From: Spirochaetota bacterium
GTDB taxonomy: Bacteria; Spirochaetota; UBA4802; JAFGDQ01
DNA length: 64,000 nucleotides
Direction: 5' to 3'
NCBI GenBank assembly: GCA_043803405.1
Contig: JAZDKB010000020.1
Span: 32,001-96,000, forward strand
Shown here: positions 5,951 to 63,810 of the stretch, piece by piece
Layout of the letters: each line of letters opens with the position of its first letter
Position numbering within the stretch: position 1 is the stretch's first letter
The notes under the pieces: generated by a model
Databases searched by the model: none
Told to the model about the DNA's origin: nothing
Seen by the model: the letters and a program-made list of their open reading frames with translations, nothing else
Program-made: the position numbers and the translations under genes

Positions 5951-6160
5951 CGTATTCTCCTATATTATTGATTTTTCATGGAGAATACGATGGTTCATTA
6001 TTTAACGCAAGATGGGAGGAATTTTACGCTTACTATTTTTTACGATTTTTCTTATGTATAAGCTCTGCGGCAGAGGATTTCAGAAAATTCACAAAGGACT
6101 TTTGGGAAATCAAACAGCGATCAGGTATTTAATTGACTATGTTCAAAAAATGATTTTAAA

Positions 6161-6268: not shown

Positions 6269-6324
6269 TGCACACTAAATAGGATTCCAACGTAAAAAAA
6301 CAGAAAAAAATTTTAATATTCGAA

Positions 6325-7323: not shown

Positions 7324-7402
7324 TGTGATATTAGGTATCTATTAAGTCGTTATTTCAAACAAATAGAAAGATGTAATGAATTTAAAACATCCAAATTTAT
7401 TA

Positions 7403-39214: not shown

Positions 39215-39874
39215 CTAGTCCTGCAGCGTAAACACTATCGGCAGCCGCGCCAGCATTTTTACAGGCCGGCCATTTATTTTGCCCGGCCTGAATCGCATCT
39301 TTGCAAGCACTTTCATGGCAGCATCGTCAAATCCGTATCCGGCATTTGCCGATAACACTTTTGACTTGTTTATCGATCCGTTATCATTAACCTGAACTTC
39401 CACAATTACCGTGCTTCGGGTTATATTTGCCGACCTGGCTGCTTTTGGGAAAAACTCATCAGGATTAAAATCTATTATGGGTATTGGAGGCCGGTCAGCG
39501 AGATCCGCGAACATATATCCGTCAGGGTCAGTGCCTGTCCCGGACAGCTTATTAATATTCACATCCGTATTTTCAGAATCCTGTTTATCCATGCCTGTGC
39601 CTTCTATCCATTCTTCTTTCTGCACAGCCGCCGGATTCGTTTCTCCCCCCATAACTACGGAAGCAGGGAGATCGATAAAATCGACCTCCGCATTTTCAAA
39701 AGTTATATTTTTTGAATCAATCGTATTGCCATCCTCGGAGCTGAAGAGCGGCATTGTGGAAATAAAATATGTCCCAAAAATGATAATGTGAAGACAAAAC
39801 GAAATACTTACGCAGCGCTTAAACAAATCAGTACTGTAAAATTTTTTAATAATAATATTTAATTTTGATTTCAT
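39215..39874 (-). CDS. tonB: TonB energy transducer
   Basis: TM segment S..LH, FPKAAR, V...GSI, GYGFDDAA, RFRPG..NGRPV. Confidence 0.88.
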   Translation of the reverse strand: MKSKLNIIIKKFYSTDLFKRCVSISFCLHIIIFGTYFISTMPLFSSEDGNTIDSKNITFENAEVDFIDLPASVVMGGETNPAAVQKEEWIEGTGMDKQDSENTDVNINKLSGTGTDPDGYMFADLADRPPIPIIDFNPDEFFPKAARSANITRSTVIVEVQVNDNGSINKSKVLSANAGYGFDDAAMKVLAKMRFRPGKINGRPVKMLARLPIVFTLQD

Positions 39875-39889
39875 AAACCGGCCTCCTGC

Positions 39890-40291
39890 CTATCGTTTTA
39901 CGGATAACGCAATGCGCGTTACCCCTGCCTGGCGGATCAAACCCATCGCGCGCGCAATTTTCCCGTACGAAAGCCTTTCGTCTGCAGATAATGTTACTCT
40001 CATGTTAGGCCTGTATTTTGCTTCCTGAGATAGCTTTAAAACCATTTTTTCTTCTGTGGTCGGAGTGGTTTCCATCATGAGTTTACCGTCAGCAGTAAGG
40101 GCAATCTGCACCGACTGCTGAACATTCGGATCAGCGGCATTTACCTTTGGAAGATTGATGTTCACTGATTCCATTTTTAAAAAGTTGGCTGTTACCATGA
40201 ATATAACAAGAAGCACAAGCAACACATCCACCATTGGCGTAATATTAATGTACCCGATTTCGTCGCTTTCCGCGTTTGGAGAAAATGCCAT
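39890..40291 (-). CDS. exbD: ExbD/TolR
   Basis: INITPMVDVLLVLLVIFMV, LSAD..L.YG, AGV.RIAL. Confidence 0.92.
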   Translation of the reverse strand: MAFSPNAESDEIGYINITPMVDVLLVLLVIFMVTANFLKMESVNINLPKVNAADPNVQQSVQIALTADGKLMMETTPTTEEKMVLKLSQEAKYRPNMRVTLSADERLSYGKIARAMGLIRQAGVTRIALSVKR

Positions 40292-40357
40292 AATTTTTTG
40301 CCCCCTTTTATTTAACTTTCATGTTATGCCTGTTTTTAAAAAACCGGCCTTATGATA

Positions 40358-40999
40358 TTACTCATTTGATTTCTTTCTTTTCGCGTTAAGGCTCGCGTTA
40401 ATCTCTTTGGAAAAAATTTCAAGATGCTGTATGATAATTTTCACTTTTTTGGAAAAGTAATTGTTCGCCATTACAACCGGTATCGCGATAAAAAGCCCGA
40501 ACGCGGTTGCGTAAAGCGCCTTGGATATGCTGCGCATTACTACTTCCGCGCCTGTGCTCCCAAGCGTGCCCAGTCCGTAAAACGCTTTAATTACACCCAG
40601 CACAGTGCCAAGAAGCCCAATGAAGGGCGCGTTGTTGCCAAGCGTGTTCAGAATCGTCAGCCGCTTTTCCATAAATATTTTTTCTTCAATGATTTTGCCA
40701 GCCATTAAGTCCGGAAGCCCGTGCTCATAATCTTTGTCAATCGCATGTTCTATTGTAAAACGAGCGAACCTGGAATATACGTTCTCGCCGGACTCTTTAA
40801 CGAAGTTTGCCGCAGCTTTAAGATCGCGCTTTCTCAGAAGCACTATCAGCTCTTCCGCAAATGCCGTAATTTTCTTATTTGAATTCTTTCTAAAAATAAT
40901 CGCTCTTTCAATGCCCACTGCCAGAGCCAGAATGCTCGCCGCAAAAAGCATTAAAAATACGAATGTTTCACCGTAATCCACAAAAACCAATTCGGACAT
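40358..40999 (-). CDS. exbB: ExbB/TolQ
   Basis: APFIGLLGTVLG, ISKALYATAFGLFIAIP. Start moved to ATG 40999 because 41044 lies inside the repeat. Confidence 0.92.
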   Translation of the reverse strand: MSELVFVDYGETFVFLMLFAASILALAVGIERAIIFRKNSNKKITAFAEELIVLLRKRDLKAAANFVKESGENVYSRFARFTIEHAIDKDYEHGLPDLMAGKIIEEKIFMEKRLTILNTLGNNAPFIGLLGTVLGVIKAFYGLGTLGSTGAEVVMRSISKALYATAFGLFIAIPVVMANNYFSKKVKIIIQHLEIFSKEINASLNAKRKKSNE

Positions 41000-41018
41000 T
41001 TTATTCTTCCTTGTGTTG

Positions 41019-41113
41019 TTATTTATTTCAACGCCTTGAAACATAATACCCCGCTGACGCCGAAGGCGGAAGCCGGTGCGAAAGCACCGGGGGCTTGCCC
41101 AGGGGAATTTTAT
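41019..41113 (-). repeat. Palindromic repeat element, copy 2
   Basis: Reverse complement matches 6161-6268 at both ends. Internal hairpins CCGGTGC-TTTC-GCACCGG and CGCC-TTC-GGCG. Confidence 0.75.
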
Positions 41114-41185: not shown

Positions 41186-42007
41186 TCAGCCGGTCTCTTT
41201 ATTCTTTGTCCACCACATGAGTGCCCAGAGGCATTTTCTCGAATAGGGCAGCCTCCAGTATCCGTTTATTCGGACAAGATTTCTGTTAAGATAAGCGCGT
41301 ACTTTATCTTCTTCCTTTGCCTTCATTTCTTTAAACATCCACCGCTGGCTTTGAAACGCATCTTCATGGCTGTCCCAGTGATTATTATGCCGTTCAGTAA
41401 TAAAAACAACATTTGCCGTGATACCCATTTCATACAGCATAAAGTAATAGTTGATGTAATCCTTTTTTATCTTGAATTTACGGCCTGCTGCCTTGTAAAG
41501 CTGCACATCAACCGGGCCCGAACCGACCGGCAATGTAATATAGACAGCCTTCCGGGCGCTCCTGTTCAGTTTTTCTATTAAATCTGTCGTATTATTGCCG
41601 ACAAGGGAACGTGACGCGATCGCGACATCATGCACCCCTATGCCCAGCATATTCCAGTCATCTTCCCATTGTCCCTTAATAGTTTTAATGTTTTCAATTC
41701 CTACGGCGCGCGAACGCTTTTCCACAATCTCAATCATACGCTCTGAAAAATCCACGGCAGTGATTGACTTCACCTTATTTGCCAGGGGAATCGCTATTGT
41801 CCCGCCGCCGCATGCCATATCAAGCACTGTCCAGCTTTTGCGCGGACGCAATATTTTGATGAACTCTTCGGGATATCCCGTGTTTGCTGCGTATTCAGAA
41901 AACTCCTGCGCCCTGCTGTTCCAGTAATCGCGTTTATTTATTATTTGCGGTTTTGCTTTGATTATCCTTTCGTGTGATGTTATTCGCTGTTTAATGGCGC
42001 TTTTCAT
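41186..42007 (-). CDS. Class I SAM-dependent methyltransferase
   Basis: YWNSRA, VLDMACGGG, AVDFS, DVAIASRS. Confidence 0.85.
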   Translation of the reverse strand: MKSAIKQRITSHERIIKAKPQIINKRDYWNSRAQEFSEYAANTGYPEEFIKILRPRKSWTVLDMACGGGTIAIPLANKVKSITAVDFSERMIEIVEKRSRAVGIENIKTIKGQWEDDWNMLGIGVHDVAIASRSLVGNNTTDLIEKLNRSARKAVYITLPVGSGPVDVQLYKAAGRKFKIKKDYINYYFMLYEMGITANVVFITERHNNHWDSHEDAFQSQRWMFKEMKAKEEDKVRAYLNRNLVRINGYWRLPYSRKCLWALMWWTKNKETG

Positions 42008-42028: not shown

Positions 42029-43099
42029 TCATTTCTCATCCTCATGAACATGCCTGTGATGAATGTCGGGCATGTGCGCATGGGCATGCGCCAGATTTTC
42101 GTGCCTGTGCAGATGTGAATGTTCTGTGTTATATTCGCTGCCGGAATGCCGGTGGTTATGATGCATATCGTCATGGCTGTGAATATGTTCGTGCTCCGTT
42201 TCATAGTGAGTATGCAGATGCGAATGTTTCTCTCCGAATAATATAAACGCGCCCAAAATTAAAAATGGAAGCGAAATTAGAAAAAACATACCCGGCTGTT
42301 CCCGGAAAACCGCAAAGGAAAGTGCTGCTCCAATAAAAGGGGCAAGCGCAAAATATGCGCCAGTCCGCGCTGCTCCCATGCTGCGCATGGCCTGCACAAA
42401 GAAAACAATGCTGATACCATAACAGCACAACCCGATAATCAGTGACAGTAAAACATCCGTCATAGCCGGCATGGCATATCCCATAACAAGGCTTAATATT
42501 AAAGTAAATGTGCCGGCTATAATGCTCTTATTCATGACTATTGTCACAGGGTCTTTTGACGATATATGCCTTGTGAGATTATTATCCAGCCCCCACAGCC
42601 CGCATGCAGCCAGAATGCCTGCTGCACCTAATGAAAAATTATAGCTTTCCTTCGTATTGACAGATAATAAAACACTGGCAGCAGTGATCAGAACTATGGC
42701 GATCCACACACGCCTGCCTGTGGATTCGCGGAAAACTGCTGCGGCAATTAACGCTGTTGCTGCTGCTTCAAAATTAAAAAGCAAAGACGCTGTTGAGGCA
42801 GGCACAATTCTTAAACAGGTCAGGAGCACAACCGGAGCAACAACCCCGCCCGAAACAGCAGCCCCGAAAAGCCAGGGAATGTCCCGCCCGGCAAGATCCG
42901 CTTCTTTTCCGGATACTCCGGTAATAGCGCGTTTAATCGCCACGAAAAAGAATAGCCCGGCTGCGCTTCCCAGATAAAGCAATGACGCCATCTGTACAGG
43001 CTGGACATTATCAAGAACGAGCTTAATAAGAGGAGCGCTCGCGCCGAACAGAACAGCCGCCAAAAGCACGCGGATTATTGCTGTCTTTTGCTGTTTCAT
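42029..43099 (-). CDS. EamA/DMT transporter with His-rich C-terminal tail
   Basis: About 10 TM segments, WGLDNNLTR, GAARTGAYF..APF. Tail HSHLHTH..HEHIHSHDDMHHNHRH..HAHAHMPDIHHRHVH. Confidence 0.85.
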   Translation of the reverse strand: MKQQKTAIIRVLLAAVLFGASAPLIKLVLDNVQPVQMASLLYLGSAAGLFFFVAIKRAITGVSGKEADLAGRDIPWLFGAAVSGGVVAPVVLLTCLRIVPASTASLLFNFEAAATALIAAAVFRESTGRRVWIAIVLITAASVLLSVNTKESYNFSLGAAGILAACGLWGLDNNLTRHISSKDPVTIVMNKSIIAGTFTLILSLVMGYAMPAMTDVLLSLIIGLCCYGISIVFFVQAMRSMGAARTGAYFALAPFIGAALSFAVFREQPGMFFLISLPFLILGAFILFGEKHSHLHTHYETEHEHIHSHDDMHHNHRHSGSEYNTEHSHLHRHENLAHAHAHMPDIHHRHVHEDEK

Positions 43100-43106
43100 A
43101 ATAATA

Positions 43107-44387
43107 TTAAATCAAAGGCTGATCCTGCCTCCAGTCAAGCGGCAGGACTTTTATCATATCTCCTGCTTTGACATCAGATCCTTCCGGAATAATGGTCAGG
43201 GAATTGGCAGCCGCTATGGAAGCGAGCATGCCCAGTTGATCCCCAAGATTGAGCTTTACCCTGTATGTGCCCTGCATCTTCTCTAAATGTGAATATTTTA
43301 CAAAAGCCATAGCCATTTTCTGGAGAGGCGAGTCCAAAGCAGTTGCTTCGACAACAGGATGAGCCACATCTTTTATGCCGCGCATTTTAAGAAGAGCAGG
43401 CCTTACAAGTGTTTCAAAATTTACGATGCATCCTGCGGGCGGGCCTGCCAGGGAAAAAACCGGTATTGCCGCATCGCCGTTCCCCGCGGCCGATTTGCTG
43501 ATCAATCCGAATGAAACCGGCGCGCCGGGGCCCATCTTAATTCTGGAAAAAATTACTTTTCCGAGCTTTGCAATTATAAGCCTAACCAGGTCATAATCTC
43601 CCTTGGATACTCCTCCGCTCGTGATTATGGCATCCGCCCTCATCCCCTTCCGAAATCTGCAAATCAGGTCAGATTCGTTATCGCGGGCAATTCCCAGAAT
43701 TTTAGGAATGCCTCCATAATGCGAAACAAGGGACGCAAGCGCCGCTGAATTGCCGTTATATGTTTTGCCTGTAGTAAGTAAATTTCCGGGATTAACCAGT
43801 TCGTCGCCTGTGGAAATTATTGCAACCACAGGACGGCTGATTACTTTAACAAATGTTATACCGACAGACGCAAGTGCGGATATCTGTGCCGGACCTATAA
43901 CTGTACCTTTCATCACAATAAGCGTATCTTTCATTACGCCGCTGCCTGCCAGCCTTATGTTTTCGCCGGGGTTAACTTTTGTATAAATTTTTACATGTGC
44001 AGGATTATTGTTATTGGGGCCGTTTTTATCGTCCGGCTCGTCAGTGTCCTCAAACCGGACAACACAGTCTGCTCCATACGGAATCACGGAACCTGTCATG
44101 ATGCGGATAGCGGTTCCAGGTTTCACGATGCAGCGGGTAGGGCGTCCGGCACGGGCAGTAGTAAGGATTTTTAAAATTACCGGATCGCGCATAGAAGCTT
44201 CTTTAATATCAGCCGCTTTTACCGCATAGCCGTCGGGACCTGAAATTGCCCACTGCGGCAGATCAAGGGGAGAATAAATGTCCTCTGCCAGTATTTGGCC
44301 TGCTGATTCAAGGAGAGGTTTTTCGACTTCTTTTAAAATTTTAATATTTTCCAGCATTATTTTTAATGCTTCTTCATAATTTAACAT
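43107..44387 (-). CDS. moeA: MoeA/gephyrin-like molybdopterin metal-insertase homologue (divergent)
   Basis: GQILAED, DGYAV, RIMTG..P.GADCVV.FED, ENIR..G, STGDEL, TSGGVSKGDYD. Confidence 0.85.
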   Translation of the reverse strand: MLNYEEALKIMLENIKILKEVEKPLLESAGQILAEDIYSPLDLPQWAISGPDGYAVKAADIKEASMRDPVILKILTTARAGRPTRCIVKPGTAIRIMTGSVIPYGADCVVRFEDTDEPDDKNGPNNNNPAHVKIYTKVNPGENIRLAGSGVMKDTLIVMKGTVIGPAQISALASVGITFVKVISRPVVAIISTGDELVNPGNLLTTGKTYNGNSAALASLVSHYGGIPKILGIARDNESDLICRFRKGMRADAIITSGGVSKGDYDLVRLIIAKLGKVIFSRIKMGPGAPVSFGLISKSAAGNGDAAIPVFSLAGPPAGCIVNFETLVRPALLKMRGIKDVAHPVVEATALDSPLQKMAMAFVKYSHLEKMQGTYRVKLNLGDQLGMLASIAAANSLTIIPEGSDVKAGDMIKVLPLDWRQDQPLI

Positions 44388-45911: not shown

Positions 45912-47447
45912 CTACTCATGAGATTTTATTTTCCATGGCGCCACATTGTTCTGCCAAACCGCCATCTGCATGTTCATTAATAAATCCCGTGCGAAAAGAA
46001 TTGCTCCATGAAATCCGCCATAATCAAAACGATATTGATCCGTTTTAAAAAAGCAGAAGAAAGAATTGGCTGCAACTCCCGTAAAAATTTTTTTGATTCC
46101 AGGGAAATAAATATCGGGCTTAATAATCTTTAGCAAATGTTCGGTTTCTTCATGACTGAGATTGGGAATCAGCATACTATTGTAATCTGTTCTTGAATAA
46201 ACGCCGTTATCGTAGTTAAACAATAGCTCAGGCATTATTTCTGTTTTTATTTCTTCAAATAACCGGGAAGGAAGTGTAATATGGTAATGCTCCAGATCGG
46301 TGTCGTATCGCAATGTTCCTTTTTCTTTTGCGGCGGAAACTCCTGGAACACTTTCTGCCGCAGACAGAAAGCTGATTTCGTTTTGTCCATTAGTACAAAA
46401 TAATTCATTGCCGATAATCACAGGATTAACTTCCAGATCGGTAAGCAGCGCCTGATAATGGCGGGAAACGAATTCATCCTCAAAAATTACCGCTGTTTTA
46501 TTTCTTAATTTATTTTTATAATTATTTAACTCATCCTGAATCTTTGCCAATTCTTCAGAAATTAATGCTTCCGTTCTATTCGCCAGTTCAGGTACATCGA
46601 AAAAATCAGCTATATTTTTTAAAGAATTAATTACATTATCCATACCTATAAAATTGAATTTAAGCCAATTTGTGCCGAACTTTTCATGCAGGACTTTAAC
46701 CATGTCAGCCACGGCCTTATCGCTGCTGAATAAATTTAAATGAGCCTTATGGGCATTTTTCAGATCATCGTAGCTGCCGTCTCCCATTAAGACCGCTACG
46801 ATATCATAACCTATCTTTTTAAATATCCTGGTGATTTCCTTGGCTCTCTGGCCGTTAAAAAACTCTCCTATAATATTTACCGGGTATTTACCCGTATTTT
46901 GTTGTCCGGTACCTATAACATTTTCAATGATACCCTGATTAGCCAGTCTATATCCGGGAATACTTCTGAAACCTTCACAGGAAAAAGAAAGCACTTTAAT
47001 TCCATATTCCATTTCTGCCTGTTGTGCGATGCTCTGTATGTCATCACCTATTAACCCAACAGGACATGTGGAACAAATCGCGATGACTTGCGGATGAAAA
47101 ATATTAACTGCTTCTTTTATAGCCTGCTTCAATTTTTTTTCTCCGCCAAAAATGACATCGCTTTCTTCCATGTTAGTTGAAAAGTCGTAGCTGAAATAAT
47201 CATCTTTTGCATTTTCAGGCATTTGCCGGATGCGATTGCCTCCCCATGAATAGTAAGAGCAGCCTACCGGTCCGTGGGTAATGATAAAAATACCGCTGAT
47301 TGGTGTCAAAACCAATCCTTTGCAGGCCATGTAGGAACAGCCGTGCTTGCATAATATGCCGGGGGTGTCCATTATCAGGCTGCTGATCTCTCTTTCTCCG
47401 GTAATGACTTTATGTTTCAAATCATCACATTCAGTAATCGACTTCAT
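45912..47447 (-). CDS. Nitrogenase alpha-subunit homologue (Group II NifD-derived) lacking FeMoco ligands
   Basis: P-cluster motifs GCSYMAC, HGPVGC and STCPVGLIGDD are present, as are the Group II-type insertion and a W....PWK end. LNLFSSDK stands at the Cys275 site and FFKTDQY at the His442 site. Confidence 0.85.
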   Translation of the reverse strand: MKSITECDDLKHKVITGEREISSLIMDTPGILCKHGCSYMACKGLVLTPISGIFIITHGPVGCSYYSWGGNRIRQMPENAKDDYFSYDFSTNMEESDVIFGGEKKLKQAIKEAVNIFHPQVIAICSTCPVGLIGDDIQSIAQQAEMEYGIKVLSFSCEGFRSIPGYRLANQGIIENVIGTGQQNTGKYPVNIIGEFFNGQRAKEITRIFKKIGYDIVAVLMGDGSYDDLKNAHKAHLNLFSSDKAVADMVKVLHEKFGTNWLKFNFIGMDNVINSLKNIADFFDVPELANRTEALISEELAKIQDELNNYKNKLRNKTAVIFEDEFVSRHYQALLTDLEVNPVIIGNELFCTNGQNEISFLSAAESVPGVSAAKEKGTLRYDTDLEHYHITLPSRLFEEIKTEIMPELLFNYDNGVYSRTDYNSMLIPNLSHEETEHLLKIIKPDIYFPGIKKIFTGVAANSFFCFFKTDQYRFDYGGFHGAILFARDLLMNMQMAVWQNNVAPWKIKSHE

Positions 47448-47451
47448 TTAT

Positions 47452-48309
<858 letters not shown>

Positions 48310-49095
48310 TCAATTACGTAAGGCTATACAGCTTTTTAAATCATAACCATCGTTGTCTGTTATCTTTGTTATTCTCACATTAATCCCATAAGTTTCTCTC
48401 ATTTTTATCTCTGTGATAATGTTATCTGCCATGCCGATTTCGAATCCATTTCTGTTCATTAAACCTATTTTGGGAGAACATAAAAAAGCGTGATTGGGAA
48501 AATGTGAGGTCATTATAATACCGATCCCTTCTTCCGACAGTTTTTTAATTTGCAGCAGAACCCTTACCTGATTGCCATAATCCAGATTGGAAGTGGGCTC
48601 ATCAAGAACAAGAATCCTCGGCTTTTGCGTAAGGGCGCGGGCTATGAGAACCATTTGTCTCTCACCGCCGCTTATTTCGGTATAAATCCGGTCTCTCAAA
48701 AATGAAACTCCCAGCTTATCAAGCGATTCTTCGGCAAGCTCAACGTCGTGCCGGGAAGGAGACGAGAAAAGCCCAAGGTGCGCGATCCTCCCCATTAGAA
48801 CAACATCCAGAACAGTATAAGGGAAAGGCGGAGTATGCGCCTGCGGCACATAACCGAGCGCTCTGGCTAAGAGAGGTTTGGACCATTTTTTAATATTTTG
48901 TCCGTCAATGGAAATCTCTCCGCCTATTAATGCAATAAAACCAAGAACGGATTTAAACAACGTTGTTTTCCCTATCCCATTCGGACCAAGCAGGCAAAGG
49001 AACTCACCTGCTTCGATTTTAAAGGAAATATTCCGGAGAATTATCCTTTTTGCATACCCCAGAAACGCATCTTTTACTTCCAGTATCATGTCCAT
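48310..49095 (-). CDS. ABC ATPase (FecE/BtuD-like)
   Basis: GPNGIGKT, ISGGERQ, LDEPTSNLD, TSH. Confidence 0.9.
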   Translation of the reverse strand: MDMILEVKDAFLGYAKRIILRNISFKIEAGEFLCLLGPNGIGKTTLFKSVLGFIALIGGEISIDGQNIKKWSKPLLARALGYVPQAHTPPFPYTVLDVVLMGRIAHLGLFSSPSRHDVELAEESLDKLGVSFLRDRIYTEISGGERQMVLIARALTQKPRILVLDEPTSNLDYGNQVRVLLQIKKLSEEGIGIIMTSHFPNHAFLCSPKIGLMNRNGFEIGMADNIITEIKMRETYGINVRITKITDNDGYDLKSCIALRN

Positions 49096-50243
49096 GAGTT
49101 CCTTTTTTTATATAATAAATAAATGAAGAAAGGCGCACCGATAATTGCGGTCAAAATACTAAGCGGTATCTCCAGCGAAAAAATTGTCCGCGATAAATCA
49201 TCGATCAGAAGTAAATATGATCCGCCCAGCATAATTGACGCTGGCAGCATAAACCTGAAATCCGGCCCGACCAGTATCCGGGCAAGGTGAGGGATTATAA
49301 GTCCTACCCAGCCGATCATACCACCGGCCGCTACAGATGATGCTGTCAGCAGTGTAGCGCAGATAATGTAAATAAAACGTATCTTTTGGGTATTTATTCC
49401 TAAAGACTGTGCTTCCTCCTCGCCGAAAGACAGGGCATTTAGCCTGTACCTTAAAAAAAACATGGGGATAATACCGATTACACTCGGAATAAGAATTAAT
49501 GGAATATTTTTTGATTTTATTGAAGAAAGACCGCCCATCAGCCAGAATGTTATTTCAGGCAATTTGTTATTGGGATCGGCAGTAAATTTAATCAGGGAAA
49601 TAAATGCCGCAAACAGGCTGGTCACAACCATACCTGTTAACACTACAACCAGAACGGCATTATTTCTCCTGCCAATAAGACTGCTGATCAGGTAAGTCAT
49701 CATAACAGCAATAATTCCGAACACAAATGCTACCAGCTGGATACTAAGCGAATCGAGCGAATAGAGAATTGCCAGGGCAGCGCCAAAGCCTGCGCCCGCA
49801 GAAGCTCCTAAAATATCCGGCGAGACCATGGGATTACGGAAGAGTCCCTGAAAAGCGGCTCCTGATGCCGAAAGAACGGAACCTATAATAAGCGCGACAA
49901 TTATTCTCGGTATGCGTATATTGAATAATACGGTTTCCATCGTATCCGGAAATACTGCCGGAAGTCCGTATAACTTACCGAAAAAAATTGTTAAAAGCTG
50001 CTTCAAGGGAACTGCATAACGGCCTACTGTAAAGGACCAGAGAAATATAACTATGAGCAGAACGAACAAAATTACAAGCACAGGTCCGCTCTTTCTAGTC
50101 CTTATCTTAGGGATTGCATTTACTGCCACAGTATCGCTTTGCATTAATCTGTCTTTCGCAGTATTGGAAAACTGCATTAATAGGTCTCCATTCAGCTTTT
50201 TCAATTTATCAATCCAATAGCTTTTTTCAAATCTTACCCCCAT
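49086..50243 (-). CDS. FecCD/BtuC-family ABC permease (start uncertain)
   Basis: RIPRI, GAAFQGLFRNPMVSPDILG, GEEEAQSLG, IGWVGLIIPH, EIPLSILTAIIGAPFF. Confidence 0.9.
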   Translation of the reverse strand: MGVRFEKSYWIDKLKKLNGDLLMQFSNTAKDRLMQSDTVAVNAIPKIRTRKSGPVLVILFVLLIVIFLWSFTVGRYAVPLKQLLTIFFGKLYGLPAVFPDTMETVLFNIRIPRIIVALIIGSVLSASGAAFQGLFRNPMVSPDILGASAGAGFGAALAILYSLDSLSIQLVAFVFGIIAVMMTYLISSLIGRRNNAVLVVVLTGMVVTSLFAAFISLIKFTADPNNKLPEITFWLMGGLSSIKSKNIPLILIPSVIGIIPMFFLRYRLNALSFGEEEAQSLGINTQKIRFIYIICATLLTASSVAAGGMIGWVGLIIPHLARILVGPDFRFMLPASIMLGGSYLLLIDDLSRTIFSLEIPLSILTAIIGAPFFIYLLYKKRNSWT

Positions 50244-50333: not shown

Positions 50334-51467
50334 CTAATGAGTAACTGAATACCTAAGCAGTTCGGCAACCTGCTTGTCTGTCAGTTTTTGATTCAGAAAG
50401 AGAGAAAAGAAATTTTTTATTTCCTGATTCAGGTCAATTTTTACATAATCCGGATAAACCACTTTAGCCAGCCATTGAATTCCCAGAACCCTCATAATGT
50501 TAGGCGGACGATCGAACCATCCGAAAGGAATTGTTGGAGTAATGTATACTTTCCCTTTTTTTATAGCATTAATCTTACCCCAGGATGGATCTTTCAATAT
50601 GCTGTCATAATTTTGCGTTCCTCCTGTCGATGAGCTGACCAGAATTACATCGGGATTCCATAAAAGTACCTGTTCCAAGGAAACAGGCGTCATGCCCTGT
50701 CCGCTCTTATTCATCACATTAGCTACATTTTTGCCTCTGACGAATCTTAATACATCGACATGATGATTGGCCTCCGGTTCGGTAGCAAGCCCGGATGTTC
50801 CCTCCGCATAATACACATTAACTAATTTTTCCTCCGGAATTTTTTCAACCATCGAAGAAATTGCCGACATTTTCTGTTCAGAATATAATGCCAGTTTTTC
50901 AGCCCTTTCTTTGACTCCTAAAATATCCCCCATAATTCTGTAAGCCTGCGGAGTAGATGTAAAAGTGGAATCTAAAATTACAACAGGCTTTTTGGTTTGA
51001 GCTGTTATTCCGTCGGAAGTCTCTATTGTTTTAATTTTATTTTCAGGATCAAGGTCCGTCATAAAAATAATAACGTCCAGAGGCTGTTTGGCTATTTCCT
51101 CAAGATTGGCAGTGCACTTCTCACCCATCCATCCGCCGAGAACCGGAAGTTTTTTAAGACGGTCATTCAAGTATTTTGAATGGGAGGTGGCGCCAACCCT
51201 AGCTGCCATTTTTTCCGGTGCCAGAGAATAAAGCATCGCCTCAGCAGTTGGCACGGCGCAATAAACAGCATTAACCTGTGCCGGGATTTTTACCTTTCTG
51301 CCTGCCATGTCCGTTATTATCCTGGTAGCTGAGGATGCGGTTATCGTATCCTGGCCAGTACTGTCCGTCTTATTGCTGCAATTATACTGCAGCAATATCG
51401 TTAACCAGAAGCAAACTATAATAGCTGCTCCTTTGGTGACATATTTTCTCATGCTAATTTTTTTCAT
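50334..51467 (-). CDS. Metal-chelate ABC substrate-binding lipoprotein
   Basis: Signal ending LQYNC, ITDMAGRKVKIP, VSLEQVLLWNPDVI, PFGWFDRPP. Confidence 0.88.
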   Translation of the reverse strand: MKKISMRKYVTKGAAIIVCFWLTILLQYNCSNKTDSTGQDTITASSATRIITDMAGRKVKIPAQVNAVYCAVPTAEAMLYSLAPEKMAARVGATSHSKYLNDRLKKLPVLGGWMGEKCTANLEEIAKQPLDVIIFMTDLDPENKIKTIETSDGITAQTKKPVVILDSTFTSTPQAYRIMGDILGVKERAEKLALYSEQKMSAISSMVEKIPEEKLVNVYYAEGTSGLATEPEANHHVDVLRFVRGKNVANVMNKSGQGMTPVSLEQVLLWNPDVILVSSSTGGTQNYDSILKDPSWGKINAIKKGKVYITPTIPFGWFDRPPNIMRVLGIQWLAKVVYPDYVKIDLNQEIKNFFSLFLNQKLTDKQVAELLRYSVTH

Positions 51468-51592: not shown

Positions 51593-53935
51593 TTAAATAT
51601 CCATTTGTAACCCTGCAAAGAATGTCCTCGGAGCACCGACATTGTATGTCAGAGACTGGTAATCCGTTGAGCTGTTCGATGCGTTTGAGCTTGCCACATA
51701 CTTTTCGTTAAGCACATTTGTTACCGAAAACTTCAAAGCAATATTCTGGCTGTCAGAAGTTTTTATTTTCCAGTTCATATCCAGATCAACCACGAAAAAC
51801 TGATCCATGCTGTAATGGTTTTCAACATCTGCATAACGTTTGCCGATATAACGAGCAGTAGGACCGACCGTCAGCCCACCTACCTGCCAGTTAACGCTTA
51901 AATTACTGACAAAGTGAGGCACTTCAGGCAACTCGTTGCCTTTAGAATCGATTGTAGTATTTCCCGCAGCTTTAAGATCTTCGGTGAATTCATATTGATT
52001 ATAAGCGAAGGCTAATTTTGCATTTAATCCGCGGATAAATGTATACCCAGCTCCGATTTCCATACCATATCCCTGCGCTGTGGCGTTAGTCTGCTGATAA
52101 CTCATGTTAAGATCAGGATCGTAGAAACTTCCTCCAACGTTTCTCATATAGGAATAATATAAAGTAGATTCAATAGTGCAATCACCGAATGCCATATTAG
52201 TCCCAAGGTCGAAATTATCGGAAACTTCCGGCTTTCTTTTATTGGAATATAAATCTTGCATTTTTTCCTGTGCGGCTTGTGGTGTATATCCCTTAGTTGT
52301 TGTTAGTGTATTATATAATGAATCGAATTGATTTGGAAGTCCGCCCGGATTATCATAATTACGGCCATATATCAGTTTAAAGCTTAGCTTATCAAAAACC
52401 TGGTATGTTGTTCCTGCATTTGGCAGCCAAATATCATATTTCGAGCCATTTAAATGATATTTCTTTTCAGTAGACCGATCAATGGCATCAGAATAGCTTA
52501 TATCCCAGTCAGAAGTATTCGTATTAGATGTCTTATAACTATCATAATCCGATTCTTTAACGTGATGGTATCTAAGACCGGCATTAACTGTTAAAGGGCC
52601 AAAGCTCCTGTCTCCAGCAATATATGGGCTATTGTACTGGGCAGTACTTGCCTTTATCAGCGTAGACCAGCTGTTAAATTCCAATCTGCCTGTAGTAGAA
52701 TTAAAAGTTCGTTTTTTTTGAGCAACATTTGGCCCTGGTGGCAAACTCTCCGCATACCAGTAGCCTGCTTTTATTTGTCCGTCGGTTATCTGCTGTTGGT
52801 ACTCAAGTATTCCTCCGTAACAATAATGATCAGCAAGATTTTCCGTGACATAGTAGCTGCTGCCGGATTTTGAGCCTCCGTAACTGAATCCTTTCTCATT
52901 TAAGTAATACGGTTTTAATGTCAGGCTCGATTCGCCGAGAAAAGGCAAAGGTGTTTTTATTTTGCCGATAAATGCACTGGTTGAAAAACGCTGCCGGTTA
53001 TAATCATAATAATTATAATCATGTGAAGAGTCCCCGGTTAATGTGTTATAATAGTCGTTCTTATAATTATTTGAAAGATGCTTTGATTCATTATAACTCA
53101 GAGGTTTATAGAGATGTTGCACATCGTCATTATAGAAGCTGTTAAGTTCCCACTCTATTGGCTGTCCGGCAGTGCTCGCAATGCCACAGGCAAAATTTTT
53201 ACGTCCATCCGGAGAGTTGCCTTCGCCTTTCCACTTATCAGCATCCGTAAATGATCCGGAAACGAATACCCTGGCAACATTTCCCACATTCCCGGAATCT
53301 ACTCTTGCGTAACTGCGGCTAAAATCATTAGTACCGAATATCTGTTTACCAGTCGCATGTAATTCATCTGACGGTTTTTTTAAATACATCTCAAACACGC
53401 CAAAATTATTGCCTGATCCGAAACCGCTGTCCGCAGGTACCGGTCCTTTTATTACGGTAATTGAATCGATATTTTCAAGATCGATTATAGTGCTTAATCC
53501 GGTACCCGGGCCGCGTTGTTTAATGGGAAGGCCTTCAATACCCTCACCGTCATTACTAAAACCTTTGCCGCGGATACGATGTGAAACATTCAATCCTATT
53601 GCGTCCAATGTTCTCACGTCTACGCCAGGTACAGTAGATATCGCTTTGTATGGACTTATCTGTGCCGCACCGCCCTGAACATCGATTGTGGATTTATCGA
53701 CTGTCTTTTTTGTTGCCGACTCTTTCTGAGACTTCACTACCACTTCCGGGAGCGTCATTGCTTCATTACTTTTGTTTTTCTCGGTATCAGCTTTTTTTTC
53801 TGCATCTGCCGCTGCCTCTTTTTTATTGATATCTTTACCCGCATCCTGAGCATTGACTTCTTTGAAAAGTATTGTGCCGGATAGTAAATATAAAATTATT
53901 ATTATTCTGTTGATTATGCTGTATTTGTTTTTCAT
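51593..53935 (-). CDS. TonB-dependent receptor 2
   Basis: Signal peptide, TonB-box-like TLPEVVV, plug motifs IRG, EGLPI and KGP, barrel strands, NVLNEKY..GAPRTFFAG. Confidence 0.9.
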   Translation of the reverse strand: MKNKYSIINRIIIILYLLSGTILFKEVNAQDAGKDINKKEAAADAEKKADTEKNKSNEAMTLPEVVVKSQKESATKKTVDKSTIDVQGGAAQISPYKAISTVPGVDVRTLDAIGLNVSHRIRGKGFSNDGEGIEGLPIKQRGPGTGLSTIIDLENIDSITVIKGPVPADSGFGSGNNFGVFEMYLKKPSDELHATGKQIFGTNDFSRSYARVDSGNVGNVARVFVSGSFTDADKWKGEGNSPDGRKNFACGIASTAGQPIEWELNSFYNDDVQHLYKPLSYNESKHLSNNYKNDYYNTLTGDSSHDYNYYDYNRQRFSTSAFIGKIKTPLPFLGESSLTLKPYYLNEKGFSYGGSKSGSSYYVTENLADHYCYGGILEYQQQITDGQIKAGYWYAESLPPGPNVAQKKRTFNSTTGRLEFNSWSTLIKASTAQYNSPYIAGDRSFGPLTVNAGLRYHHVKESDYDSYKTSNTNTSDWDISYSDAIDRSTEKKYHLNGSKYDIWLPNAGTTYQVFDKLSFKLIYGRNYDNPGGLPNQFDSLYNTLTTTKGYTPQAAQEKMQDLYSNKRKPEVSDNFDLGTNMAFGDCTIESTLYYSYMRNVGGSFYDPDLNMSYQQTNATAQGYGMEIGAGYTFIRGLNAKLAFAYNQYEFTEDLKAAGNTTIDSKGNELPEVPHFVSNLSVNWQVGGLTVGPTARYIGKRYADVENHYSMDQFFVVDLDMNWKIKTSDSQNIALKFSVTNVLNEKYVASSNASNSSTDYQSLTYNVGAPRTFFAGLQMDI

Positions 53936-54229: not shown

Positions 54230-55279
54230 CTAATCGACATTTTTAATATTTTTTAAATCGCCTATATTGCGGAAATATTTTACCATATCAAAGTCAATTC
54301 GTTTGCCTGATCGTATTCTGTCTCTTAAATCTGCCATGTGCGCGTCAATCAACTGGAGTTCTCTCAAATTTTTACGTTCCAGGCTGTTTGTCTCAACGAC
54401 TGAATCTATCCCTCCGTTTTTAATGACTATTCTTCTGTCTCCCATGAGCGCCAAAATCGGATCATGTGTCGACATGAGGACGATCTTTTCTTCTCTTACA
54501 AGGAGGTCGAGGGCTTTCCTCCGATCAACGCCGGCGTTTTCTATTTCATCAATGACTACGATCGGCAGCGGGCTTAGTAGCGCCGTATCGGCAACCATGA
54601 GCGCCCTCGACTGGCCGCCCGAGAGCTGCGTTACCGGAGTACTCATCCCGAAAGGTTCACCCGCAAGTTCATTGGCGCATGTAACAATTTTTTGCACTGT
54701 TGTTCCTATTTCGCTTATCATTCTGCTTTCTGCATGCATGGTGATAAATTCCGCGACTGTGAGGTCAACCACAAAGTTCATGTTTTGCGAAAGCTGAGCG
54801 ACTAGCTTATTCTCAATCGAAAAACGCTTCTCGCTATCCGGAATACTGTCATTAATGAGTATCTGCCTGCCAGTGGGTGTATCCCTCTGAGCCAGACATT
54901 CTATATCGGCAAGGAGCCTGCTTTTACCCGATCCTGTAGGCCCGACAACGCAGACTATTTCACCTGGCCTGAACGCGAGAGTTATATCCTCTTTCTCGCC
55001 GTTTTTGTTGCGGCCTCCTATTATAGTGAGAGAGTGCACCTGCCTCTGCGGAGCGTCCTTCAGATCACTCATTTTCCGGATGAATACCGCGAAATGCTGC
55101 AGCATCTGCTCGCGGTCAATGCCGCAATCTTCGATGAACACGTCTGTTAATCCTGAAATAAATTCAGCAACAGACAGATGTCCTGCGATTTCCTTTAATC
55201 CAAATGAGAAAAAAAATTCCTTCGCGTATGGATGAGACTGCATCAGTGTATCTATTGGAGTAGATAATAATTCGTTCAT
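54230..55279 (-). CDS. Soluble ABC-type ATPase with extra N-terminal domain
   Basis: GPTGSGKS, LSGGQSRALM, IDEIEN, STHD. No permease in its unit. Confidence 0.8.
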   Translation of the reverse strand: MNELLSTPIDTLMQSHPYAKEFFFSFGLKEIAGHLSVAEFISGLTDVFIEDCGIDREQMLQHFAVFIRKMSDLKDAPQRQVHSLTIIGGRNKNGEKEDITLAFRPGEIVCVVGPTGSGKSRLLADIECLAQRDTPTGRQILINDSIPDSEKRFSIENKLVAQLSQNMNFVVDLTVAEFITMHAESRMISEIGTTVQKIVTCANELAGEPFGMSTPVTQLSGGQSRALMVADTALLSPLPIVVIDEIENAGVDRRKALDLLVREEKIVLMSTHDPILALMGDRRIVIKNGGIDSVVETNSLERKNLRELQLIDAHMADLRDRIRSGKRIDFDMVKYFRNIGDLKNIKNVD

Positions 55280-55283
55280 GTCA

Positions 55284-55979
55284 TTACTCCGATTGCCAAT
55301 TCATCTTTTTAACATATCCCCGCTGGTACTCCTTTCCTATCTTTGTTTCGCCGAGACAATAAGAGCACATCGCTGCCGGCATGGAAAACCGGAGGCGCCG
55401 TCCTTCGAGCTTATCTAAAGCAGGGGCAGTCTCGAGCATAACTCCCAGATCGTAAGCTCCCTGTCCCGTTATGCCATTTATGTTCATTATTGCAGCGCGG
55501 GGATTTGCCTGTTTTACTCTGAAAGTAAATATCTCGCGTTCGGCCTGTGAAACAATATCACCCTTTGTAATGACGACAATATCTGCCAGCTTTAACATCG
55601 GCCCAATTTTTTTTGGCGTATTAATTCCCGAAAGATTATCAATAACACATATCGCTAGAGCATCCTTTATGTGAGGGGCGCAGCGGTTGCACAGGCCGGC
55701 GCTTTCTATGATTAGAACGTCTATATCCTTTTGCACACCCCACTGCAGGCATTCCTCTATATTACTTATAAAAAAATGATCGGGACATAGAGTGCCGGAC
55801 AGTCCGACCTTTACCGGGATTTGGTACTTTTCATAAGCCTGATCGTCATAAGTAATTGTACAGTCGAACTTGATTACGCCTGTCTTAAGCCCCTTTGTTT
55901 TTAAATAGCCTGCTGCCTTTATAATCACAGATGTCTTTCCCGATGATGGCGGCCCTGCAACAGTGACAAGCCGTATCAT
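55284..55979 (-). CDS. HypB/UreG/CobW-family GTPase
   Basis: GPPSSGKT, LCPDH, IESAGLCNRC, ITKGD, C-terminal CSYC. Confidence 0.85.
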   Translation of the reverse strand: MIRLVTVAGPPSSGKTSVIIKAAGYLKTKGLKTGVIKFDCTITYDDQAYEKYQIPVKVGLSGTLCPDHFFISNIEECLQWGVQKDIDVLIIESAGLCNRCAPHIKDALAICVIDNLSGINTPKKIGPMLKLADIVVITKGDIVSQAEREIFTFRVKQANPRAAIMNINGITGQGAYDLGVMLETAPALDKLEGRRLRFSMPAAMCSYCLGETKIGKEYQRGYVKKMNWQSE

Positions 55980-58112: not shown

Positions 58113-58186
58113 TACTCATTGCCTTTGATGATCATTGTCACTCATAACGGATATTCCGAATTAACCTTCATTTTGTTTTAACCTAA

Positions 58187-59236: not shown

Positions 59237-59244
59237 AAGAACTC

Positions 59245-61599: not shown

Positions 61600-61629
61600 A
61601 AAAAACCTCCTAAAATGTTAGCAATCTTT

Positions 61630-61653
61630 CTATATGTCAATAAAAACATAACG
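61630..61653 (-). promoter_or_regulatory. ModE-type box 8 (upstream of TBDR3 operon)
   Basis: CTATATGT-N8-ACATAACG. TGTCAA 8 bp away at 61662-61667. Confidence 0.8.
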
Positions 61654-61757
61654 CATATTTCTGTCAATGGTTTTTAAATTCTTATACTTTCACTGAGTAT
61701 TTAATTTGTAATTGGAAGATTTAAAACAACAGCAGGTTAAATTACTTTTTAAATTTT

Positions 61758-62429: not shown

Positions 62430-62555
62430 ATTTAACTCCGACTGGTATTAAAAAAAATATTTCTCCTGTTTTATGATTCGATAAAAGCTTTATCTTCAAT
62501 AATATTTAAAAAACATTGTCGCCTCGATAAATCTATTTCTATATGGCTGTTCTCA

Positions 62556-62825
62556 TTAACTATGAGAAGCAAACTCACTAATAGTCTTTTTTGTTGCCGA
62601 TTCTTTCTGGGCTTTTACTGCTAATTCCGGTAGTGTTGTGGCATCAGAATTATTATTTTTATCTGAATCCGCGTTTAATCCGGTTTCTGAATTTGTTTTT
62701 TTTTCAGTGTTTGCATCCTGATCCTGTTCAGTCTCGCCATAAAGTTCTTCAAAAGATATTATATTGACCAATAAGGACAAAATAATTAATATTTTTTTTA
62801 TTAAATTAAAATTAATGAATTTCAT
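62556..62825 (-). pseudogene. Truncated N-terminal remnant of a TonB-dependent receptor
   Basis: Signal peptide followed by TLPELAVKAQKESATKKTI, matching TLPEVVVKSQKESATKKTV of receptor 2. The ORF stops after 89 aa. Confidence 0.8.
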
Positions 62826-63751
62826 ACATACCTGCCTAAAGAAAAAATGAAATTATTTATTTCTGTATTTTCTATTGTTTTCTCTGACCTTGTAAGGTAA
62901 AATTTATCCCGAAAAATGATCAGTCGTTCGGCGGATTTGCCAAAAAAGTGATAACCGGAACCGCCCTCGGAAAGAGTATCAAGCAGTGTGTCCGGGTCGT
63001 TCACTATTACTCCGCCTATAGCGTTTATACCGCGCCGGAAAAAGGCTTCCGGCAGCATGCTTGCAGTAGGCCCTACCAAAACAGCTTCCGCTCCATCGCG
63101 TTTCAGGCGGAGGATATCTTCAAGAGTGTTGTTGATAAGCGTAGTGCCTGTTATAATCAGCAGATCGGCCGATGCTATGCATTCATCGGCTTTTTCAGGA
63201 GGGCAGTAATATTGCATCTCATCCGCTTTTAGCGTGCGTGTATCTTTTTCCAGAATATGGAAATGCCGGCCGCGGCGTTTAAGTATCCGGATATAGGGCA
63301 CAAGAGCGCCTATGACTACGACCTTTTTGTCGATCGGGATGTTTTTATTTTCAACAGGATCAGCGAATTCCAGATTATATACAGCCGGAGGAGTCCTGTG
63401 CCAGCATGTTGCGGAAAGGGCATTCAGAACAGCAATCCCCAATGCTGTCTGCAAAGGCCCTTTTTTATAAATATTATCAATATATTCGGAAACTGGTTTT
63501 CCTGCCAGCTTACCGGAATCCGGCATGGCGCGCAGGGAACTGGGACAGCAGACTGCTTCAGGGATTTCTTTTGCAGGCGTAAGACAGATACCTCCTTCTC
63601 CGTTTGAAAGCTTAACACCTGAAAAAAACAGCCCAACAACTGCTCTTTCGACATTAATTGAGTTAATTTCACGGCCGAGCATATTACGTATTTGCTCTGC
63701 TGTTTCCATTAATATATTATAATTATAATTGATATTTTGTTTTGATGCCAA
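62822..63751 (-). CDS. DUF364 / Rossmann-like putative metal-chelation protein
   Basis: VVGLFFSGVKL, AVCCP, LGIAVLNALS, VVIGA, ITGTTLINNT, VGPT. AAGGAGG RBS places a TTG start at 63751. Confidence 0.8.
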   Translation of the reverse strand: MASKQNINYNYNILMETAEQIRNMLGREINSINVERAVVGLFFSGVKLSNGEGGICLTPAKEIPEAVCCPSSLRAMPDSGKLAGKPVSEYIDNIYKKGPLQTALGIAVLNALSATCWHRTPPAVYNLEFADPVENKNIPIDKKVVVIGALVPYIRILKRRGRHFHILEKDTRTLKADEMQYYCPPEKADECIASADLLIITGTTLINNTLEDILRLKRDGAEAVLVGPTASMLPEAFFRRGINAIGGVIVNDPDTLLDTLSEGGSGYHFFGKSAERLIIFRDKFYLTRSEKTIENTEINNFIFSLGRYV

Positions 63752-63786
63752 CAGAATGCCTCCTTTTATAATTATTTTGTTTTTAT

Positions 63787-63810
63787 CGATATGTCCAAAC
63801 AAACATAACG
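63787..63810 (-). promoter_or_regulatory. ModE-type box 9 (between DUF364 and modE-like gene)
   Basis: CGATATGT-N8-ACATAACG. TGTCAA 8 bp away at 63819-63824. Confidence 0.85.

Follow-up and report, generated by a model that had tools for sequence, protein, structure and literature searches.

Background

What does a nitrogenase alpha subunit do when it has kept the site of its P-cluster and lost that of the iron-molybdenum cofactor (FeMo-co)? The question is raised by a gene for a NifD-like protein, here termed the variant NifD, in a 64,000-nucleotide stretch of DNA (the window) that forms part of contig 20 of a Spirochaetota bacterium genome (GenBank assembly GCA_043803405.1; G000 in our numbering). 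The gene stands between those of a variant NifK and a variant NifH, next to the genes of an ATP-binding cassette (ABC) importer. Judged from its sequence, the variant NifD has lost the FeMo-co site: the two cofactor ligands and the entire first shell have given way to a new set of conserved features, namely Met65, Leu70, a deletion of 191, an aromatic residue at 195, Ser275, Lys277, Glu355, Asp356, Phe358 and Phe441 (Azotobacter vinelandii numbering). Its clade is real and conserved, and apparently an undescribed branch of the nitrogenase superfamily. The three proteins probably no longer fix nitrogen and serve molybdenum or tungsten (Mo/W) metabolism instead, and the variant NifD should not be annotated as a nitrogenase. 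An initial annotation of the window had already read the protein as a NifD derivative with a replaced cofactor pocket. We take up that reading; the MolBC-type importer and the Mo/W cofactor context, which it missed, are the best functional lead.

Results

Replacement of the FeMo-co pocket

The clade was delimited by a search of 5.8 billion protein clusters, in which 12 further representatives were found at 50-77% identity to the variant NifD, followed by a drop to 43% or less, the level of ordinary NifD. The protein is its own representative in the library clustered at 50% identity. Several of its orthologues are publicly named 'nitrogenase molybdenum-iron protein alpha chain'.

The open reading frame (ORF) is intact, as the initial annotation had stated without giving the strand (reverse), and every motif quoted there is present in the translation, which contains HGCSYMACKG, HGPVGC, TCPVGLIGDD, CEGFRSIPGYR, GEFFNGQR, LNLFSSDKA, EDEFVSR, NELFC, FFKTDQY and WQNNVAPWK. 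HMMER was used to search solved structures, and the best match was Clostridium pasteurianum NifD (1mio/4wes; E = 3.2e-109), with residues 20-510 aligned to 35-523 of the chain. The match to A. vinelandii NifD (about 7e-56) is split into two pieces. The C. pasteurianum alignment displays the replacements, and the retained Group II insertion, residue by residue.

For a site-wise comparison, 13 members of the variant clade were aligned with 28 canonical Group II NifD. Residues within 5 Å of FeMo-co, homocitrate and the P-cluster were taken from Tables S8-S10 of Howard et al. (2013), and the canonical rows validate the position mapping, since their residues are exactly those given for Group II in Table S9. 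In the shell of the FeMo-co metal cluster, the clade consensus is changed at all 17 canonical-conserved positions, compared with 68 of 154 other canonical-conserved columns (Fisher p = 2.8e-6). Only one of 11 conserved positions is changed in the P-cluster shell (p = 0.026), and that change, Tyr186 to Phe, is the Group I state. The homocitrate shell is changed at three of six conserved positions, and the protein overall at 89 of 188. The concentration of losses on the cofactor pocket is confirmed, and is stronger than the initial annotation had described it.

The pocket changes are V70L, R96N, deletion of Q191, H195Y, Y229F/L, I231N, C275S, R277K, S278A/V, V355E, G356D, G357E, S358F, R359V, F381L, L441F and H442N/K/Q. 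Both FeMo-co ligands are lost in all 13 members, Cys275 having become Ser and His442 Asn, Lys or Gln. Gln191, which falls inside a three-residue deletion, and His195 are likewise lost throughout, and Arg96 and Arg359 are changed in every member. All six of the cofactor-shell or substrate residues Val70, Arg96, Gln191, His195, Arg359 and Phe381 (as listed in Table S9 of Howard et al. 2013) are therefore replaced or deleted. Position 380 is split between Asp (seven members) and Glu (six); the window's protein has kept Glu380, which is lost from the clade consensus. Three residues ahead of the former His442, almost every one of the 13 members has a new Cys that the sister clade lacks. The P-cluster ligands Cys62, Cys88 and Cys154 are kept in 13/13 members, as the initial annotation had proposed for the window's copy, and in 41/41 members of the sister clade.

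The replacement motifs are conserved in all 13 representatives, so that the substitutions are not random as in decay. Chance falls far short of explaining the pocket replacement, and conservation extends to the new residues. Curated profiles give a similar picture: the variant NifD scores 367.3 bits against nifD (TIGR01282; cut-off 653.55), where the canonical NifD of the same genome reaches 664.1, and 272.9 bits against nifE (TIGR01283; cut-off 505.1).

An AlphaFold2 model of the protein (mean pLDDT 79.7, pTM 0.82) was closest to the C. pasteurianum MoFe alpha subunit in Foldseek (TMq 0.72-0.73). Model confidence is lowest in four stretches. Two contain former pocket positions, 61-80 (position 96) and 461-470 (positions 440-442), and the other two, 361-380 and 411-420, lie inside the Group II insertion.

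Descent from Group II nitrogenase

A tree of 69 rows was built with IQ-TREE (LG+C20+F+G4, quick search, SH-aLRT support). The 13 variant rows stand together (99) and join three sister-clade rows (100; stem length 1.08). This joint group is nested in Group II (44 rows, 100), which holds an inner subclade of Bacillota-type NifD (29 rows, 99). A 35-row tree (LG+G4) gave the same placement. Clustering with NifE or a Group IV clade, which the initial annotation had named as the contrary outcome, was not found: the NifE (6), Vnf/Anf, Group III-like and Group IV-like (4) rows all fall outside Group II and the variants, in a tree whose Group IV-like rows do not include labelled Group IV-VI references.

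An insertion of about 52 residues at A. vinelandii position 391 defines Group II according to the sections of Howard et al. (2013) used here. The variant NifD carries it in full, as the initial annotation had reported (about 50 residues), and alignable to canonical Group II; it is shortened in the sister clade and missing from the Group I and III rows. Because two trees nest the variants in Group II and the insertion is retained and alignable, descent from a true Group II (clostridial-type) nitrogenase is supported at the level of sequence, with a branching point inside, or next to, crown Group II. Against a position strictly inside, forcing the 17 canonical Group II rows of the 35-row set together costs 27.15 log-likelihood units, and the approximately unbiased (AU) test, applied to a group named only after the tree was seen, does not reject the sister position (p-AU 0.104). 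The earlier proposal of neofunctionalisation from true nitrogenase ancestry accordingly stands on the trees, the insertion and the selection data given below, with nesting as opposed to a sister position as the part that does not hold firmly.

A separate NifD-like clade (P0176, P0199, P0215 and P0220), sister to the single Group I row, also keeps the P-cluster Cys and lacks both Cys275 and His442; a member from Azotobacter vinelandii goes by the name 'oxidoreductase/nitrogenase, component 1'. Because this second clade lacks the same ligands, loss of the FeMo-co site next to true nitrogenases may have happened more than once.

Sister clade and selection

The sister clade comprises 41 representatives, including proteins named from Desulfosporosinus and Raoultibacter. 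A core signature is shared by all 54 representatives of the two clades: the three P-cluster Cys, Leu70, no Gln191, Ser/Thr275, Lys277, Glu355, Asp356, Phe358, Phe441 and no His442. Position 191 is a gap in 53 of them and Val in one, and Met65 is present in 53. The sister clade differs in Trp195, in Arg or Lys at 359 (Gln in two members) and in its shortened insertion. Its entries are P0121, P0122, P0126 and P0282-P0320, some of which represent 50-113 member sequences; none of 88 genomes in the class of genome G063 matched it.

Ratios of nonsynonymous to synonymous substitution (dN/dS) were calculated by the Nei-Gojobori method for informative pairs (dS 0.26-0.74). They are 0.13-0.15 for the variant NifD, 0.09-0.13 for NifK and 0.06-0.14 for NifH. 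Two near-identical NifD pairs give 0.41 and 0.59 on a handful of changes and are uninformative. The variant NifD clade is under purifying selection.

The NifK and NifH partners

Along its whole length, the variant NifK can be aligned with C. pasteurianum NifK (E = 1.6e-157). It keeps beta-Cys70, Cys95, Cys153 and Ser188, and beta-Gln93 is replaced by Ser in 8/8 sequences. Compared with 17 canonical K rows, one of them a stray NifN, 21 of 135 canonical-conserved columns are changed. It scores 355 bits against the curated nifK profile (cut-off 427.3). The variant NifH reaches 434.3 bits against nifH (TIGR01287), above the equivalog cut-off of 394.35, and its P-loop and cluster ligands Cys97 and Cys132 are visible. 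Its best solved matches are 6nzj and 1cp2, and it is 63% identical to the canonical NifH of the same genome.

Distribution and independence from FeMo-co synthesis

Further loci were located with a clade-specific degenerate DNA pattern on metagenomes (4 loci) and with genome searches by class (5 of 125 genomes). These nine include members of two near-identical pairs, leaving eight distinct loci with the window: the window itself, L101, L099 (with L102), L100 (with L130), L127, L128, L126 and L129. A scan of a genome collection with the clade alignment returned canonical NifD loci only (at most 47% identity).

Five carriers belong to the class Syntrophomonadia. In three of them (G092, G125 and G181) the only two PF00148 proteins are the variant NifD-NifK pair. 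G180 has one extra, distant PF00148 pair, and G178 alone has a full nif set. A NifB above the cut-off is present in G178 and in none of the other four. The match in G092 lies on a 3.2 Mb contig as large as that genome itself, so that an assembly gap is an unlikely reason for the missing nif genes. The variant NifDK pair therefore occurs without NifB or NifEN, independently of FeMo-co synthesis. On contig 16 of G178, the variant (55294-58003) lies about 16 kb from a PF00148 quartet with a NifB match (74410-80947), which looks like a canonical nifDKENB cluster.

None of 60 relatives of G000 (2 of the same genus, 4 of the same family and 54 of the same order) carries the variant; the best match, 36% identical, is a canonical NifD. 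The nearest relatives of the variant are found in Bacillota and on one metagenome contig that also has a TonB receptor. Given both observations, transfer is the most likely way in which G000 came by the module. GC content bears no trace of it (0.408 in the variant operon vs 0.391 in the genome).

G000 holds three H-D-K sets: canonical (contig 3), variant (contig 20) and a third (contig 15). Contig 3 carries a complete canonical Group II cluster of nifH, I1, I2, D, K, E, N, B and a V-like gene, and its NifD has every canonical motif. The GC content of this cluster (L017; 5038-14548) is 0.486, against 0.391 for the genome, and only 0.8% of 4-kb windows are as high. The third set (L018; 8356-12966) encodes a NifB-like protein (307 aa), NifH, a D-like protein (492 aa) and a K-like protein (441 aa). 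It directly follows a methionine-type ABC transporter (ATPase, permease and lipoprotein; 5781-8266), amid 2-hydroxyacyl-CoA-dehydratase-like genes, and looks like a methylthio-alkane reductase (MarBHDK) cluster.

A conserved module with a MolBC-type importer

Genes for a substrate-binding lipoprotein (PBP), a FecCD permease and an ATPase stand directly upstream of the variant nifH in all seven loci that extend far enough to show them; in L127, the contig opens with the ATPase gene. This synteny of trio and importer holds across phyla. The PBP orthologues are 60-74% identical to that of the window, comparable to the variant NifD, which indicates that the six genes travel as one module.

The permease has MolB as its best solved match (2nq2_A, E = 1.4e-68, 235 bits), well ahead of the heme permeases (HmuU; 172 and 157 bits) and BtuC (125 bits). 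For the PBP, the solved matches are 4pag (3.7e-46), 4ovk (1.7e-21) and then MolA HI_1472 (9.9e-17), which stands above all PBPs listed under a molecule name indicative of an iron, siderophore, nickel or ferrichrome cargo. In the consulted sections of a review, MolBC-A figures as a type II importer of molybdate (PMC4245157).

Accessory genes vary between the eight loci. A DUF364/DUF4213 gene occurs in five (the window's copy at a distance of 15 kb), FmdE in three (L099, L126 and L129), XdhC in two (L126 and L129) and MoeA, directly after the variant nifK, in two (the window and L101). TonB receptors are found in two loci, the only ones whose contigs carry TonB-dependent receptors. L126 has a ModABC-like set with a PBP_like regulator, and L099 two HGD-D proteins after the variant NifK. 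A methyltransferase of 210-215 aa lies between the ATPase and NifH genes in four loci; it was considered as a core part and rejected, being limited to these four and not orthologous to the enzyme of the window. As for DUF364, the parts of a preprint available to us place it next to molybdate uptake genes and report cofitness with nifH in Methanococcus maripaludis (bioRxiv 10.1101/2024.03.05.583561), and the corresponding parts of its structure paper list tungstate, vanadium and molybdate transport neighbours (PMC2954201).

In L099, a molybdenum cofactor (Moco)/tungsten riboswitch (RF01055; score 66.7 bits, gathering threshold 36) is located within the operon leader, some 100 nt ahead of the PBP gene, and it recurs in the near-identical L102. 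None was found in L100, L101, L126, L128 or L129 (E up to 1), in the window from 34 to 64 kb (E up to 5) or, at the gathering score, in L127. G000 has no Moco riboswitch genome-wide, and its absence from the window therefore says nothing. The five Syntrophomonadia-class carriers have 5-14 each. The module of G125 is the tail of a same-strand array that is headed by such a riboswitch, followed by formate dehydrogenase, a MoCF_biosynth-domain protein, MoeA, NuoE, NuoF, XdhC, FmdE, DUF364 and a first type II ABC set. The formate dehydrogenase gene appears as two ORFs of 358 and 536 aa, a split that we take to be a selenocysteine codon.

A second Moco riboswitch of L099 (13974-14092, forward strand; 72.4 bits) follows FmdE, DUF364 and TrmO-like genes and stands just before an ORF with a Cas12f/TnpB-type domain. 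This transposon-associated gene may have replaced the riboswitch's original target.

Discussion

Proposed role in molybdenum or tungsten metabolism

We propose that the variant NifH, NifD and NifK form a three-protein, ATP-driven electron-transfer enzyme, a P-cluster-only reductase evolved from Group II molybdenum nitrogenase. NifH would hydrolyse ATP and pass low-potential electrons to a P-cluster at the NifD/NifK interface, from which they would reach something bound in or near the rewritten NifD pocket. The trio is inherited as one module with a MolBC-A-like type II ABC importer, amid Mo/W cofactor genes, and its most likely job would be the reductive handling of imported Mo/W species, or the supply of Mo/W to pterin-cofactor enzymes such as the formate dehydrogenases of anaerobes. 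A Mo/W role is suggested because the module is shared with this importer and embedded among those genes. On balance we favour a Mo or W species as the cargo of the importer, with the system feeding or conditioning Mo/W for pterin-cofactor enzymes.

A bolder version of this proposal, which we consider quite unlikely, is that the former FeMo-co pocket holds a different Mo/W centre, perhaps molybdopterin or tungstopterin delivered by the adjacent chaperones of MoeA/XdhC type. The polar, phosphate-friendly residues Asn96, Tyr195, Arg196, Ser275, Lys277, Glu355 and Asp356 would be consistent with this, as are XdhC-type chaperones with no other client in the stretch around L129 and the one locus with a Moco riboswitch. 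If true, the trio would be an ATP-driven molybdo- or tungsto-enzyme in which a nitrogenase chassis carries a pterin cofactor, fed by a P-cluster, with access to potentials beyond those of ordinary Mo/W enzymes.

Several points weigh against a Mo/W role. The riboswitch is found in only one of the eight distinct loci, and MoeA and XdhC in half of them or fewer. MolA-type binding is deduced from a similarity of E = 1e-16, and the search output names no ligand for the closest solved PBPs, 4pag and 4ovk. Chelates, haem or corrinoids are the more usual cargo of TonB-dependent receptors and type II ABC importers. Acidic residues abound in the rewritten pocket (Glu355, Asp356, Glu357 and Asp276), unlike in a free oxyanion site. 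The Glu355-Asp356 pair, invariant in 54/54 representatives, argues against a simple oxyanion site and would fit a cationic or reduced metal centre, a proton relay or a polar organic cofactor. The initial annotation inferred a pocket left for a different ligand, but the replacing residues could just as well fill it; in that case the substrate site would be elsewhere or the variant NifD would only relay electrons.

Alternative explanations

The chief rival, itself unlikely, is a tetrapyrrole or corrinoid reductase comparable to DPOR, COR and CfbCD, in which an imported haem, corrinoid or metal chelate would be reduced in the former place of FeMo-co. Judged by their best NCBIfam names, the TonB receptor and the FecCD/Peripla_BP_2 importers belong to types that typically carry B12, haem or siderophores, and methyltransferases recur in the loci. 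The nitrogenase relatives of known function that lack FeMo-co ligands mostly reduce tetrapyrroles, according to the available sections of a recent review (Chem Rev 2026, PMC13474568), and a flavin or pterin-like ligand is proposed for DUF364 in the available part of its structure paper (PMC2954201). The importer argues the other way: the permease is far closer to MolB than to HmuU or BtuC, and the PBP is closer to MolA than to proteins named for iron, siderophores, nickel or ferrichrome. The accessory genes and the riboswitch also indicate Mo/W, and, in contrast to DPOR or CfbCD, neither half of the six-Cys P-cluster set has been lost.

Ranked next, and less likely still, is a NifEN-like scaffold or maturase for the metal cluster of another enzyme, or a Mo/W store loaded with the help of the variant NifH. 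NifEN shows that a NifDK paralogue can become a scaffold, NifH is needed for Mo insertion on NifEN, and MoeA and XdhC chaperones are adjacent in some loci. In the passages available, Dos Santos et al. (2012) raised the possibility that metal transport is linked to the assembly of cofactors where nitrogenase-like genes stand next to ABC transporters. Set against this, the variant NifD stands apart from NifE in both trees and far below the nifE cut-off, and the equivalent of Cys275 is absent. There are carriers without NifB or any other nitrogenase-family protein, and a NifB-derived cluster is thus not available there to mature.

It is very improbable that the protein is still a nitrogenase, or an alternative nitrogenase holding its cofactor through other residues. 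The public names, a variant NifH above the nifH cut-off and the near-invariant new Cys before position 442 could be read in that way. The pocket has changed at every conserved position, with Cys275, His442, Gln191 and His195 gone and Arg96 and Arg359 altered throughout the clade; the nifD score is little more than half the cut-off, the new Cys is absent from the sister clade, and the variant is present in genomes without NifB, NifE and NifN. Least probable of all is a decaying duplicate without a function of its own, made redundant by the complete canonical nif cluster of G000: it is excluded by ORFs intact in all loci, the low dN/dS, replacement residues conserved across 54 representatives, importer synteny across phyla and three carriers without any canonical nif genes.

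Gene array of the window

The genes of the array lie on one strand in the order TonB-dependent receptor, PBP, FecCD permease, ATPase, NifH, NifD, NifK, MoeA, EamA transporter, S-adenosylmethionine (SAM) methyltransferase and ExbB/ExbD/TonB (Table 1). The last three are likely to be the energiser of the TonB-dependent receptor. A second MoeA is encoded elsewhere in G000, and the MoeA of the operon is an extra copy.

Table 1. Features of the variant operon and its surroundings in the window
Feature	Position	Strand	Observation
ExbB, ExbD and TonB genes, downstream	39215..41044	-	
Class I SAM methyltransferase, membership unsure	41186..42007	-	not orthologous to the in-operon methyltransferase of Firmicutes loci
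EamA-family transporter, His-rich tail, membership of the system unsure	42029..43099	-	not seen in other loci
MoeA-like molybdopterin molybdotransferase, immediately after variant NifK	43107..44387	-	66% identity to same-position MoeA of L101
Variant NifK, near-canonical partner, 451 aa	44542..45897	-	alignment and profile scores
Variant NifD, Group II NifD derivative, P-cluster Cys kept, FeMo-co pocket rewritten, 511 aa	45912..47447	-	intact ORF
Variant NifH, Fe-protein, 276 aa, P-loop and both cluster Cys	47452..48282	-	above nifH equivalog cut-off
ABC ATPase of type II importer	48310..49095	-	position matches other loci
FecCD-family permease, best solved match MolB (HI1471)	49086..50243	-	
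Peripla_BP_2 substrate-binding lipoprotein (PBP)	50334..51467	-	orthologues 60-74% identical in every locus
TonB-dependent receptor at operon head	51593..53935	-	63% identity to L101 receptor
DUF364/DUF4213 protein, about 15 kb upstream of the module	62822..63802	-	family adjoins the module in four other loci

The tail of the EamA transporter is long and contains many HxH repeats, which suggests metal binding. Upstream of the operon, a second reverse-strand array (54230-63802) looks like one for metal uptake. It encodes DUF364, DUF1847, a second TonB-dependent receptor, a second Peripla_BP_2 protein, two SBP_bac_6 proteins in whose translations a signal peptide is not obvious, a CobW/HypB-like GTPase and an ABC-ATPase-like protein with a long N-terminal extension. 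In a search of sequencing runs with sampled words, the shares were small in two DNA runs (0.10 and 0.07) and next to nothing in a third from their study (0.00), and no RNA run was listed.

Comparison with known systems

The full-text literature searched, which leaves subscription-only articles outside, yielded no account of a clade of Group II descent that lacks FeMo-co, or of such a clade being linked to a MolBC-type importer, nor is the clade described in the available portions of PMC13474568, PMC3464626, PMC9447857, PMC13753814, PMC13067680 and PMC11484787.

Among the closest known systems is C. pasteurianum NifDK (1MIO, 4WES). The variant pair shares with it a full-length alignment including the insertion, the P-cluster ligands, 10 of 11 P-cluster-shell residues, the NifK and NifH partners and the best-matching predicted fold. 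It differs in the replaced FeMo-co ligands and first shell, the three-residue deletion at 191, scores below the nifD and nifK cut-offs, its occurrence without NifB, NifE and NifN, and its link to an importer rather than to nif accessory genes.

Like the nitrogenase-like enzymes of Groups IV-VI (methylthio-alkane reductase, MAR; ISR; CfbCD; DPOR/COR; and Elusimicrobia Group VI), the variant system combines an Fe-protein with a D/K component, has no nitrogenase-type FeMo-co coordination and presumably acts on a substrate other than dinitrogen. The consulted sections of the 2026 review (PMC13474568) list Groups IV A-F, V and VI and state that nitrogenase-like sequences do not cluster with true nitrogenases; the variant clade does, unlike the groups reviewed there. 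In the same source, Cys275 is retained in MAR, which depends on a maturase of NifB type, and the cluster of DPOR and CfbCD is a [4Fe-4S] one. The variant pair keeps all six P-cluster Cys and needs no NifB. The MAR-like D protein of G000 and three other Group IV-like rows are far from the variant NifD in a tree whose rows do not include labelled Group IV-VI references. NifEN resembles the variant pair as a NifDK-derived paralogue pair that has no His442 and works with NifH; the variant NifD differs in not grouping with NifE, in having no Cys275 equivalent, in keeping the Group II insertion and in occurring without NifB.

Nitrogenase-like genes beside ABC transporters were reported by Dos Santos et al. 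(2012), in the passages available, from C. botulinum, A. oremlandii, C. cellulovorans and M. labreanum. Those genes run in the order found here (ABC ATPase, NifH, D/E-like, K/N-like), and the proposal that metal transport is coupled to a nitrogenase-like protein is shared as well. Going by description only, their proteins are set apart as NifE-like, with an N-like partner without the conserved Cys, and as lying outside conventional nitrogenase, whereas our NifK keeps every Cys and our NifD clade is of Group II descent.

The importer resembles MolBC-A of Haemophilus influenzae (HI1470/71/72) in its permease and PBP, with the E-values given above. It differs in that identity is moderate, two uncharacterised PBP structures are closer and a TonB-dependent receptor heads two of the eight operons. 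We know of no nitrogenase-like partner of MolBC-A. None is mentioned in the consulted portion of the MolBC-A review (PMC4245157).

These comparisons set the variant system apart in several ways. The review places nitrogenase-like enzymes, in the sections consulted, outside the true nitrogenases (PMC13474568), whereas the variant clade would be a recent exit from inside the crown group. Its Fe-protein, beta subunit and P-cluster site are nearly untouched and the catalytic pocket alone is rewritten, a natural experiment in the repurposing of ATP-driven electron delivery. The fixed tie to a MolBC-type importer and to Mo/W cofactor genes points to a function new for the superfamily, which could bear on Mo/W acquisition by anaerobes in sulfidic habitats. 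Because the variant NifH passes the nifH cut-off, the variant NifD is named as a nitrogenase and three carriers have no other nitrogenase-family gene, surveys based on nifH or nifD can count non-fixing genomes as diazotrophs.

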